NCBI GenBank assembly: GCA_022785265.1
Contig: JALFQD010000409.1
Location: forward strand, 46,222-110,221
Direction: 5' to 3'
Origin: Clostridium sp.
GTDB taxonomy: Bacteria > Bacillota > Clostridia > Clostridiales > Clostridiaceae
DNA length: 64,000 nucleotides
The position numbers and the translations under genes are program-made. Position 1 is the first letter of the stretch; each line of letters begins with the position of its first letter. This document shows, one piece after another, positions 20,944-22,637 of this stretch. The notes under the pieces are model-generated. The model was not told the DNA's origin and did not search any database. It saw nothing but the letters and a program-made list of their open reading frames with translations.

Positions 20944-22410
20944 ATGAGTAATGGTTTTATAGATGGTCTGCGCGAAATGAATAATGTTACTTATACTGAA
21001 AACGGTGCGATAAGCTTGCGGAGCACTTTGGATGCAGTTTATGATCTGTTTGCGTTGGGTGCAGCGTTTCGTCAGCGCAGTGAAGAAGATATTATAATTC
21101 TGTTCAAAAGGGCTTATAGGGAAGATCCGGAACTGGCTATGAAATGTCTGTTCTATATCCGTGACGCACGCGAAGGTCAAGGTGAGAGACGTTTCTTCCG
21201 TGTATGTATGAATTGGCTTGCCAAATCTGACGATCGTGAAGCTGCCAAGCGCAATCTTCAGTACGTATCTGAATTTGGTCGATGGGACGATTTGTATTGT
21301 TTTGTTGATACTCCTCTCCAGAATGATGCTCTTGAAATAATGCGTCAGCAGATAGCTCTGGATATGTCTTGTAAGACTCCTTCTTTGCTTGCAAAATGGT
21401 TGAAGTCTATTAATACCTCCAGTGCCGAATCCCGCAGACTTGCTAATATTACTCGTGAATACTTTGGAATGACTCACAAACAGTACCGCCGTACTCTGTC
21501 TATATTGCGCGAACGCATCAATGTGCTTGAAAGGCTTATGTCTGCCGGAGAATGGGAAAAGATCGAATTTGATAAAATACCTTCTCGCGCTGGTCTGATA
21601 TATCGTAATGCTTTTGCGCGTCGAGATATATTGCGTGAACGCTATGAAAAGTTTATAATGGATAAAAATACTAAAGTTAATGCTAAAGTGCTTTATCCAT
21701 ATGAATGTGTTGAAAGTGCTCTTAAGTGTAGAAAACGTGATAGCCTTGAACGCGCCGCAATTAATAAGTATTGGGATAATCTTAGAGATTATTTCAATGG
21801 CGCCGCATTTAATGGTATGGCTTTGGTTGATGTTTCTGGTTCAATGACCACACAGCATAATTCCATAGCACCTATAAACATTGCCATTGCTCTTGGACTT
21901 TATTGTGCTGAAAAGTGTTCTGGGCCTTATAAGGGACATTTTATCACCTTTGAATCTAATCCTCATTTCATTGAAGTAGAGGGTGAGGATTTTGTTGAAA
22001 AAGTTAAAAACATGTACAATGCTCCTTGGGGCGGCAGCACTAATATTGAAAAAGCTTTTGATTTGATGCTTCAAGTGGCGATAAGGAATAATCTTTCTCA
22101 GGAAGATATACCTAAAAATCTCATTATTATTTCAGACATGGAATTTGATGCTGCTACTCGAGGTCATAACTTTTGTCCTTTGTGTGATTCAATCAAAAAT
22201 GATTGGGCGGCTGCTGGATACAAAATGCCGCATTTGGTATTTTGGAACTGTAACGCTAGACATGACTTAATTCCTATGCAGGATGATGGTGAGGTTACTT
22301 TTGTTTCTGGCGCAAGCCCCGTCATCTTTGAAATGATTATGTCAGGTAAAACCGGTAAAGAAATGATGAAAGAGAAGCTTGAAAGTGAGCGTTACTCTTG
22401 CATTCATTGA
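20944..22410 (+). CDS. TROVE/Ro60-like plus vWA-domain protein (DUF2828-like)
   Basis: vWA MIDAS motif LVDVSGSMT. N-terminal helical region as in the Ro60/TROVE family. 488 aa. GC-richer than the background. Confidence 0.5.
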   Translation: MSNGFIDGLREMNNVTYTENGAISLRSTLDAVYDLFALGAAFRQRSEEDIIILFKRAYREDPELAMKCLFYIRDAREGQGERRFFRVCMNWLAKSDDREAAKRNLQYVSEFGRWDDLYCFVDTPLQNDALEIMRQQIALDMSCKTPSLLAKWLKSINTSSAESRRLANITREYFGMTHKQYRRTLSILRERINVLERLMSAGEWEKIEFDKIPSRAGLIYRNAFARRDILRERYEKFIMDKNTKVNAKVLYPYECVESALKCRKRDSLERAAINKYWDNLRDYFNGAAFNGMALVDVSGSMTTQHNSIAPINIAIALGLYCAEKCSGPYKGHFITFESNPHFIEVEGEDFVEKVKNMYNAPWGGSTNIEKAFDLMLQVAIRNNLSQEDIPKNLIIISDMEFDAATRGHNFCPLCDSIKNDWAAAGYKMPHLVFWNCNARHDLIPMQDDGEVTFVSGASPVIFEMIMSGKTGKEMMKEKLESERYSCIH

Positions 22411-22435
22411 CAAAAATAAAAATTTTTGTTATAAT
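22407..22435 (+). promoter_or_regulatory. consensus sigma-70/sigma-A promoter (TTGACA-17-TATAAT) driving the suppressor tRNA
   Basis: Perfect hexamers with a 17 nt spacer, about 40 nt upstream of the tRNA. Confidence 0.65.
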
Positions 22436-22476
22436 ATATATGTTAAATAAATGGGAATAAAAAATTCCCATTTTGA

Positions 22477-22550
22477 TGCGGGCTGGTGAAATGGTAGCCA
22501 CGGCGCTCTCTAAAAGCGTTTTTTTCTGAGTTCAAGTCTCAGGCCCGCCG
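22477..22550 (+). tRNA. amber suppressor tRNA (anticodon CUA, reads UAG)
   Basis: Cloverleaf with anticodon stem GCGCT/AGCGT and loop C-U-C-U-A-A-A (U33, CUA, A37). T-arm CTGAG-TTCAAGT-CTCAG. D-loop AATGGTAG as in the phage tRNA-Gln. Discriminator G. The 1-72 pair is U/C. Confidence 0.8.
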
Positions 22551-22604
22551 CGGTATCATGTAGGAGCCTTTTCGTGGCGATACTATTTTAAACTAATCCT
22601 ACTA

Positions 22605-22637
22605 AACTCTCAGTATTTTACTGGGAGTTTTTTTTAT
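22605..22637 (+). terminator. rho-independent terminator after the suppressor tRNA
   Basis: aactctcagta/tactgggagtt hairpin followed by T8. Confidence 0.65.

Follow-up and report, generated by a model that had tools for sequence, protein, structure and literature searches.

The stretch of DNA analysed here, 64,000 nt of contig JALFQD010000409.1 (hereafter the window), is part of the genome of a large uncultivated tailed phage with a GC content of 33%, in which amber (TAG) codons recur inside reading frames and a transfer RNA (tRNA) with the anticodon CUA, the candidate suppressor for these codons, is encoded at 22477–22550 on the forward strand (anticodon at 22510–22512). Greedy calling of open reading frames (ORFs) with TAG as a sense codon yields 79 genes, and ARAGORN reports seven tRNA genes. 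Megablast of 24 kb against the GenBank phages gave no match at the nucleotide level, hence no cultured close relative exists; at the protein level the nearest phages are those of Bacillus, Geobacillus and Alicyclobacillus, with at most 42% identity. IMG/VR holds many relatives, whose genome sizes are put at 160–176 kb or, more broadly, at 130–200 kb, and in-frame TAG lies inside the alignments at 96 of 178 related loci. Two close relatives served for the comparisons below, namely the IMG/VR contigs 3300045988_177309 (relative A, 93.5% nucleotide identity, 55.6 kb of the window aligned) and 3300045988_175607 (relative B, 89.7%, 49.0 kb aligned). Promoters and Shine-Dalgarno sites are Firmicutes-like, and no terminase gene is present in the window. 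Naming the host through the phage SHMT gene was abandoned, as the best bacterial matches, from metagenome-assembled genomes of Clostridia, reach 56% and are too weak for that purpose; gut or rumen Clostridia are a weak hint.

The tRNA(CUA) gene and its transcription unit

The tRNA is accepted by three detectors, as the earlier note on this DNA had proposed to check. ARAGORN calls it at 22477–22551, its label "Pyl" reflecting the anticodon only; Rfam family RF00005, run on 22470–22558 alone, scores 39.5 bits over the full length (gathering score 29, E = 1e-7); and a covariance model of 18 independent phage tRNA(CUA)s, from which this phage and the two close relatives were excluded, gives 61.5 bits on 22477–22550 (E = 1e-17). 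Within the window this model ranks the phage's own tRNA-Gln(UUG) second (51.7 bits), above the tRNAs for Ile, Leu, Thr, Pro and Ser, and compensatory changes occur in 14 of the 18 stem pairs among eight homologues from related phages. RF00005 did not report the tRNA when the whole window or a 301-nt region was scanned, and the reading as a degenerate tRNA that these misses invited was dropped in view of the score of the 89-nt scan, which identifies the misses as filter losses rather than rejections. Such losses under default Rfam filters help to account for the fact that only a minority of recoded genomes yield a suppressor tRNA in surveys.

The molecule folds as a class I cloverleaf with U8, a 7-bp acceptor stem that begins with U1·C72, a D-arm of G10-C25, U11-A24, G12-C23 and the non-canonical A13·C22 around an 8-nt D-loop (AAUGGUAG), a 5-bp anticodon stem (GCGCU/AGCGU) with the loop CUCUAAA, a 6-nt variable loop (UUUUUU), the T-arm CUGAG-UUCAAGU-CUCAG, and the discriminator G73; CCA is not encoded. 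The former description as a well-formed class I tRNA thus holds as far as the detectors go, and has to be qualified for the two non-canonical pairs, the all-U variable loop and the missing CCA. A terminator scan flags the anticodon stem-loop (22502–22525) together with the six or seven T that follow in the variable loop as terminator-like, and this T-run is kept in the subclade (TTTTTTT or CCTTTTT). At two distantly related loci (L003, 10130–10204; L012, 4700–4774) the flanking genes are near-identical and the tRNA(CUA)s clearly different (acceptor stems CGCCUCG and UGGGGUG), which suggests that the suppressor tRNA gene was replaced in place.

The tRNA gene is set in a short unit that runs from promoter to terminator on the forward strand. 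The promoter (22407–22435) consists of TTGACA (22407–22412), a 17-nt spacer ending in TGT and carrying the TG of an extended −10 element (22427–22428), and TATAAT (22430–22435); it matches the sigma-70 consensus at 12 of 12 positions, which bears out its earlier description as perfect, and it is invariant in both close relatives. Perfect TTGACA-17-TATAAT sites occur three times in the window (22407, 45216 and 52034), and sites with at most one mismatch number nine against 1.8 expected. The tRNA promoter is one member of a family of repeats, TTGAyT-17-TATAATATATATA, that are spread over the phage, with ~17–20 copies before genes across the window. In its longer form, TTGAyT-N17-TATAATATATATA(c/g)AAAAT, the repeat is found for example at 12359, 16603, 17453, 22628, 29078, 33252 and 55056, often directly 3′ of a terminator hairpin of the GGGAAT/ATTCCC type, the tRNA promoter being the copy with a perfect −35 element. 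Between the predicted transcription start (~22442) and the tRNA, the whole-transcript fold places a hairpin of putative function (AAAUGGGAAU-loop-AUUCCCAUUU, 22449–22473), whose sole change in the relatives falls in the loop. The tRNA is followed by a 53-nt trailer with a small hairpin (22551–22603), nearly invariant in the relatives, and by an intrinsic terminator (22604–22637) with a 12-bp stem (22604–22630) and a T-run. Identity of the unit to the two close relatives is 98.7% and 96.1%, against genome medians of 94.4% and 90.0%, which places it among the top 3–7% of windows. In the distant relatives L003 and L012 the homologous tRNA is flanked immediately by a gene on each side, lacks a promoter of its own and has CCA encoded, so that the stand-alone cassette is specific to the present subclade.

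Two further features of the trailer were considered and rejected. A mini-ORF of 12 codons (ATG-TAG-GAG...TAA, 22558–22596), whose end lies 8 nt short of the terminator stem, lacks a Shine-Dalgarno sequence and changes its length in the relatives through a 1-nt deletion, hence it is probably a chance occurrence rather than a sensor of suppression. Pairing of the trailer with the 5′ half of the tRNA, suggested by the whole-transcript fold as a maturation switch, has a duplex energy that is marginal against shuffled and genomic controls (p = 0.02–0.04). The late expression envisaged before is not indicated, as the promoter is one of a phage-wide host-type family and the distant relatives have no dedicated promoter; a host-type consensus promoter argues against a simple or strictly late switch in this lineage. 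Directly 5′ of the tRNA lies a gene (20944–22410) for a DUF2828 / Ro-like RNA-binding protein (PHROG 850, E = 1e-130), whose synteny with tRNA genes is kept in many relatives, and an RNA ligase gene lies nearby (27264–28655), which hints at a tRNA repair or quality-control module.

TAG as a sense codon and its amino acid

At least 60 open codons on both sides flank the stop in 7 of 18 cases for TAG, against 4 of 68 for TAA and 0 of 26 for TGA. Recalling the genes under genetic code 15, as had been proposed, raises the coding density from 0.827 (code 11) to 0.910, while a control in which TGA is the sense codon (code 4) reaches only 0.841. The greedy calls contain 41 in-frame TAGs in 20 of the 79 genes, corresponding to 6% of the 673 Gln-type codons, and the remaining 59 genes contain none. 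The TAGs at 33725 and 33749 were discarded as coding since they lie upstream of the likely true start, as was that at 30579, which is located in a promoter repeat; about 14 well-supported and about four plausible TAG-containing genes result, close to the "at least 16" counted before. The codon is distributed unevenly (heterogeneity permutation p = 0.0004): the highest counts are found in an HNH gene (five), a GIY-YIG gene (four) and a PIN-PhoH gene (four), and the TAG-free genes include both topoisomerase subunits, the ligases, DnaB and an 814-aa vault-like protein.

All 79 genes terminate at TAA (55) or TGA (24), so that the statement made for the genes without TAG extends to the whole set and no gene needs TAG as a terminator. 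Of four ORFs formerly thought to end at TAG (12265, 13576, 23062 and 37353), most are better read as continuing; position 12265, for instance, is CAG in one close relative and CAA in the other. The context-dependent reading of UAG that had been derived from these ORFs finds no counterpart in a context signal, except that C is absent directly before TAG, probably through avoidance of CTAG. Between TAG and the CAR codons (CAA and CAG), the following base shows no significant difference (p = 0.10).

Comparison with the two close relatives shows substitutions dominated by third codon positions, in the same frame, on both sides of the TAGs (given below as counts at codon positions 1/2/3), and it also speaks to the amino acid. 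In-frame TAG is conserved 53 times and differs 36 times, and 31 of these 36 differences are exchanges between TAG and CAA or CAG. Nearly half of the latter (15 of 31) involve CAA and need two base changes, hence mutational proximity does not explain the Gln pattern. The other five differences are TAT (twice), AAA, AAC and TAA, with no TGG and no GAR among them. Distant relatives give the same picture in 1,312 tblastn alignments, where TAG was scored as a stop and the TAGs of the window as X and where, consequently, no bias toward Gln is built in: the in-frame stops are 272 TAG, 16 TAA and 2 TGA, and opposite the TAGs of the relatives the window shows enrichment of Q (8.9-fold), E (3.9-fold), K (1.7-fold) and D (1.5-fold), with W at 0.4-fold and Y at 0.2-fold. 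This ranking (Q > E > K > D) corresponds to the substitution neighbourhood of glutamine. Both comparisons strengthen the previous assignment of TAG as probably Gln, and the Glu residues noted opposite TAG in paralogues (MA-TAG-K versus MAER; DKILL-TAG-S versus DKILEES) fit the same neighbourhood.

Read-through of TAG is borne out by domain, profile or codon comparisons in the genes that follow, all of them on the forward strand. In the RecJ-like exonuclease gene (62088–63851; TAGs 62193 and 62286, the second CAA in relative B), positions 1–561 of the 564 of PHROG 2484 align with residues 9–582 and span both TAG36 and TAG67, and on inspection of the sequence there is no start codon between TAG67 and the DHH motif I. 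In a radical SAM gene (800–2062; TAGs 902 and 1337, which are CAA/CAG and CAG/CAG in the relatives), the Pfam domain Radical_SAM (residues 6–154) extends over TAG35, and substitution counts across the TAGs are 2/0/5, 8/2/24 and 8/7/39. A second gene of this type (40154–41479) has CAG in relative A at TAG 41213, with 0/0/10 downstream. The tail-fibre-like gene (35399–36517; TAGs 35462, 36041 and 36227, the last being CAA in both relatives) has a third-position bias in all four segments.

The PIN-PhoH gene carries four TAGs (37849, 37861, 37921 and 37942) in the linker of its first exon (37378–38242), which encodes Pfam PIN_4 at residues 15–131 and PhoH at residues 229–282; the joining of the two domains is corroborated by 79 relatives (viral contigs) that encode the N-terminal 288 residues colinearly. 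At site 182 of this protein the relatives have GAA 35 times, CAA and CAG 19 times each and TAG five times. The HNH homing-endonuclease-like gene (52510–53271; TAGs 52615, 52666, 53032, 53092 and 53146) aligns with PHROG 559 at residues 35–241 across four TAGs, and its site 195 is CAA in 16 relatives, CAG in two and TAG in five. In the neighbouring GIY-YIG gene (53268–54239; TAGs 53355, 53409, 53439 and 53712; Pfam GIY-YIG at residues 234–315), position 53439 is CAG in relative B and 53712 is CAA and CAG in the two relatives. The endolysin gene (43727–44659; TAGs 44249, 44306 and 44465) belongs to a PHROGs endolysin family and has an N-terminal Pfam PG_binding_1 domain; its last segments show 1/0/13 and 0/0/13, and TAG247 falls between the C-terminal motifs DCSG and H-x-G-x-Y. 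Read-through is therefore needed for the Cys...His pair, as had been argued, whereas the NlpC/P60 domain invoked along with it was not found by Pfam or PHROGs. The sole sequence match of the C-terminus in the PDB, the weak one of entry 8er5 (E = 0.32), places TAG247 opposite the Q of QPGD and lends the NlpC/P60 assignment no more than weak support.

Further TAG-bearing genes comprise a precursor-like protein gene (209–799) that opens the first radical SAM module, with TAG 215 kept in both relatives and 3/4/27 downstream; its paralogue (7249–7872; TAG 7384; 4/2/23 downstream); a small gene (4776–5021) whose TAG 4794 is TAG in both relatives; a gene at 11776–12348 with TAGs 11833, 12265 (discussed above) and 12301 (TAG and CAG in the relatives); a gene at 34963–35391 with TAGs 35185 and 35194, both kept in both relatives, and a weak codon-position signal; and a plausible small ORF (51843–52037; TAGs 51933 and 51939), in which 51933 is CAG and CAA in the relatives. 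Taken on this comparative evidence, TAG is a sense codon that is read through in this phage and is interchangeable with CAA and CAG, and the genome encodes a genuine tRNA(CUA) within a conserved transcription unit of its own.

Charging of the tRNA and competing explanations

The classical rule set for glutaminyl-tRNA synthetase (GlnRS) of Escherichia coli comprises U35, G73, G2-C71, G3-C70, G10, a weak or open 1:72 pair, G36, A37 and U38. The tRNA(CUA) has U35, G73, G2-C71, G10, A37 and the unpaired U1·C72. The relatives keep the mismatch at 1:72 as U·C, C·C or U·U, in contrast to the covariation of the remaining six acceptor pairs. In a survey of 615 distinct tRNAs from the fetched viral loci, 106 of them tRNA(CUA)s, a 1:72 mismatch was present in 17 of 43 tRNA(CUA)s with G73 and in 3 of 63 without it, in 5 of 33 tRNA-Gln(UUG), in 11 tRNAs with the anticodon CAU (taken as initiator-type) and in 4 of the remaining tRNAs. 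An unpaired acceptor end that recurs mainly in tRNA-Gln(UUG) and the CAU tRNAs points to charging by GlnRS, and the open 1:72 end together with G73 offers a simple, testable signature of Gln identity for phage amber suppressors. The 106 distinct tRNA(CUA)s fall into two types of acceptor end, namely U/C1 with A/Y72 and G73, which is Gln-like, and G1-C72 with A73 (33 cases); the latter would attract lysyl-tRNA synthetase (LysRS) by the E. coli rules, and some tRNA(CUA)s have long variable arms or possible introns (loci L216 and L226). Different phage suppressors may hence insert different amino acids.

The ancestry of the tRNA may lie in tRNA-Trp, as for the E. coli suppressor Su7, or in tRNA-Gln. 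Its anticodon loop differs by one base from that of tRNA-Trp (CUCCAAA), a resemblance which the earlier note had pointed out and which is real, yet without effect on the amino acid decoded; in further comparison with Su7, G73 is present and 1:72 is U·C instead of A1-U72. By raw identity, the phage tRNA(CUA)s of the Y1 type are nearest to tRNA-Trp in 15 cases and to tRNA-Gln in seven. For the tRNA itself, assignment by nearest-neighbour identity proved uninformative, with Trp, Gln, Gly and Met tied at 0.69. The D-loop, previously matched to that of the phage tRNA-Gln, is indeed similar to it. GlnRS accepts E. coli tRNA-Trp(CUA) as a substrate, and A73 in combination with U35 attracts LysRS, amber suppressors with A73 being more readily charged with Lys (PMC2965240).

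These data very probably mean that the phage uses genetic code 15, with TAG as a minor Gln codon that is decoded by its own tRNA(CUA) after charging by the GlnRS of the host. Host RNA polymerase with a sigma-70-type factor would transcribe the tRNA unit from the start of infection, since among the host-type promoters that recur throughout the phage this is the best copy. RNase P would remove the hairpin-bearing leader and host enzymes would trim the 3′ trailer and add CCA, as it is not encoded, whereupon GlnRS would attach glutamine by recognition of U35, G73, G2-C71, G10 and the open 1:72 end. The resulting Gln-tRNA(CUA) is expected to outcompete host release factor 1 (RF1) at UAG, giving full-length homing endonucleases, PIN-PhoH, endolysin, tail fibre, RecJ and radical SAM modules, with TAA and TGA as the only terminators.

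Several observations weigh against this explanation. The GlnRS elements are incomplete, with C3-G70 in place of G3-C70, A38 in place of U38, and A36; position 3:70 is variable across the tRNA(CUA) family, and any amber suppressor has to carry A36, supE included. The anticodon arm resembles that of tRNA-Trp, and by overall similarity the tRNA does not group with those for Gln. A few TAGs are ambiguous: at 23062 the two relatives have TAA and AAC, and 13576 lies two codons before a TGA. No gene for a release factor, including release factor 2 (RF2), or for a synthetase was seen among the annotated proteins of the window, and if the host has no GlnRS, another charging route would be required. The case as a whole is built on sequence rather than on protein or RNA, and the aminoacylation identity is a prediction of the same kind.

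The explanation can be refined by assuming that suppression is partial and dose-dependent and acts as a gate. RF1 would then still terminate a part of translation, the genes with several TAGs (HNH, five; GIY-YIG, four; PIN-PhoH linker, four; endolysin, three) would yield full-length protein only at abundant tRNA(CUA), and truncated products, such as the PIN domain alone, may be functional. A gate of this type has been established as a hypothesis for other recoded phages (10.1101/2021.08.26.457843), and it agrees with the concentration of TAG in few genes, with the lack of TAG in all large replication enzymes, and with the retention of the four linker TAGs in both relatives. However, TAG-bearing and TAG-free genes share apparent operons and the same promoter family, the host-type consensus promoter makes early expression of the tRNA probable, the exchanges between TAG and CAR are as frequent as expected for near-neutral synonymous use (31 changes versus 53 conserved codons), and keeping all four linker TAGs is not significant given the rates of the close relatives (~0.09). 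We regard such gating as possible, though doubtful.

Insertion of an amino acid other than Gln, be it Trp, Glu, Lys, Tyr or pyrrolysine, is decidedly improbable. The Trp-like loop, the nearest neighbours of the Y1-type tRNAs, the second rank of Glu opposite TAG and in the paralogues, and the "Pyl" label could each be cited in its favour. Against them stand 31 CAR codons at the differing sites of the close relatives, compared with one AAA, two TAT, one AAC and no TGG or GAR, as well as absent or marginal enrichment of W, Y and K in the distant ones. Lys charging, moreover, is favoured by A73, whereas this tRNA has G73 (PMC2965240). For pyrrolysine in particular, TAG alternates with CAR and not with AAR. 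The hallmarks of tRNA-Pyl, namely a short D-loop, a variable loop of 3 nt and an anticodon stem of 6 bp, are absent, the corresponding values being 8 nt, 6 nt and 5 bp. That the TAGs are genuine stops in split or decaying genes, with the tRNA(CUA) an incidental passenger, would accord with a density of 83% under code 11 and with TAGs in linkers and N-terminal regions, where fragments could in principle be expressed separately, and is effectively refuted by the comparative data, given that the excess of flanking ORFs is confined to TAG, purifying selection acts in frame on both sides of TAGs that alternate with CAA and CAG, RecJ motif I and the endolysin Cys...His pair are inexpressible without read-through, and few stretches are as well conserved as the tRNA unit, with covariation in the tRNA family.

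Decoding of TAG as Gln by suppressor tRNAs has been described for crAss-like phages and for the Lak, Jade, Sapphire, Agate, Garnet and Amethyst clades (Borges et al., 10.1101/2021.08.26.457843), and code-15 recoding was validated by metaproteomics (Peters et al., PMC9523058). Like these gut and rumen phages, the present phage has a low GC content, an apparently standard-code host, TAG opposite Gln and a phage tRNA(CUA), its recoded genes include lysis and structural genes while the large replication enzymes are TAG-free, and the genome size of its relatives lies in the range of the Agate and Sapphire clades. The fraction of recoded genes is 26–71% in those clades and ~20% here. Unlike in those clades, TAG is a rare Gln codon here, reaching its highest density in homing endonucleases and extending to RecJ, PIN-PhoH and radical SAM genes without confinement to a late module, and the tRNA is served by a consensus host-type promoter and a terminator of its own, with no RF2 gene seen in the window. 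The gut phage phAss-1 of the proposed Phassvirus (~136 kb) has TAG in 41 ORFs (28%), three tRNA-Sup-CTA genes predicted for Gln, 36 tRNAs and no dedicated synthetase (Babkin et al. 2023, PMC10607447); here, too, recoded genes are spread over characteristic phage functions, whereas one suppressor is seen among the seven tRNAs of the window.

With supE (tRNA-Gln with CUA) and Su7 (tRNA-Trp with CUA, mischarged with Gln) the tRNA shares CUA, U35, G73, a weak or open 1:72 pair and Gln at UAG, and the pairing of a Trp-like anticodon arm with Gln decoding parallels Su7 (PMC2965240). It differs in being a normal, phage-encoded part of the code rather than a mutant allele of the host, in that its charging is predicted, in the true pyrimidine-pyrimidine mismatch at 1:72 instead of U-A or A-U, and in C3-G70 and A38. 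The tRNA-Gln(UUG) of this phage group resembles it in U/A at position 1, G73, the D-loop and an occasional 1:72 mismatch, and differs in the anticodon loop (YUUUGAY), with an identity of ~0.69 that is no higher than to the Trp, Gly and Met tRNAs. In every respect that can be examined computationally the phage thus behaves as a code-15 phage, a kind of recoding already well documented in gut phages, to which the 1:72 and G73 signature, the Rfam filter loss, the density of TAG in homing endonucleases and the host-type promoter are additions. For annotation, this phage and its many relatives of 130–200 kb in gut and rumen viromes need translation table 15, without which the RecJ, PIN-PhoH, endolysin, tail fibre, homing endonuclease and radical SAM genes look truncated or split.

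As GlnRS binding requires the first acceptor pair to open, one may tentatively view the conserved Y·Y mismatch at 1:72 with G73 as an identity device that hands a suppressor with a Trp-like arm to the host GlnRS. If so, it would mark a class of phage amber suppressors, in which Y1·Y72/G73 stands for Gln and G1-C72/A73 for another amino acid, perhaps Lys. A bolder version adds gating at the level of maturation: the leader hairpin, the trailer and the missing CCA would control tRNA maturation in this subclade and thereby time the genes with several TAGs (homing endonucleases, endolysin and PIN-PhoH).

Introns, mobile elements and further genes

The PhoH domain ends abruptly at 38244, and full-length homologues align with 37408–38259 and then with 43234–43665, which reveals a group I intron of 5,007 nt (38243–43249) and a second exon at 43250–43668, both on the forward strand; the intron is not part of the recoding system. 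This continuation beyond the intron had been missed when the gene was first described as joined through its TAGs. RF00028 matches 38261–38448 (E = 1e-5) and 43100–43240 (E = 7e-5), both below the gathering score, as the core is split by a 4.7-kb insert. The P1 helix (CUUGGGU/GCUCAAG) has U·G at the 5′ splice site (after T38242), the terminal G lies at 43249, a long-range helix of 38455–38478 with 43178–43202 closes the ~4.7-kb loop, and the spliced ORF is colinear with its homologues without a gap at the junction. The loop contains seven ORFs, among them a precursor-like protein (38500–39132) and two proteins of the radical SAM type (40154–41479 and 41786–43171); two of the seven carry TAG (38851 in the first, 41213 in the second of these). 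No homing endonuclease is recognisable among the seven. Group I introns normally carry one endonuclease ORF at most, hence a cargo of several genes is unusual. The arrangement is the same in relative A.

A second insertion of ~1,082 nt (56797–57878) with a LAGLIDADG ORF (56952–57761) splits a P-loop ATPase gene (56434 to 58502) that is a continuous ORF in relative A. Its boundaries fit the group I rules, the exon ending in T and the insert in G; an Rfam search of 56797–57878 gave no match and no intron core. Presence or absence relative to the close relatives is seen at 52409–53258, 4351–4699, 46799–47057 and ~47270. Relative B lacks the HNH gene with its five TAGs and a gene of 120 aa, a 259-nt segment occurs in the window only, and both relatives have ~1.2 kb more between two topoisomerase genes. 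Judging by these differences, the recoded TAG is in use in mobile elements circulating within this group of phages, and its heavy use in homing endonucleases indicates that selfish elements have adopted the altered code.

Three paralogous modules are found at 209–3440, 7249–10671 and 38500–43171, each with a protein of ~200 aa (a conserved N-terminal helix and a repetitive C-terminus rich in Ser, Thr and Asn) followed by two CxxxCxxC radical SAM proteins of ~420–490 aa; they look like a peptide-modification system resembling those for ribosomally synthesised and post-translationally modified peptides. The 814-aa protein (30779–33223) contains Major Vault Protein shoulder and vault-repeat domains (Pfam E = 3e-20 and 6e-10) and adjoins an SPFH/Band 7 protein (29646–30518), both of them unusual in a phage.

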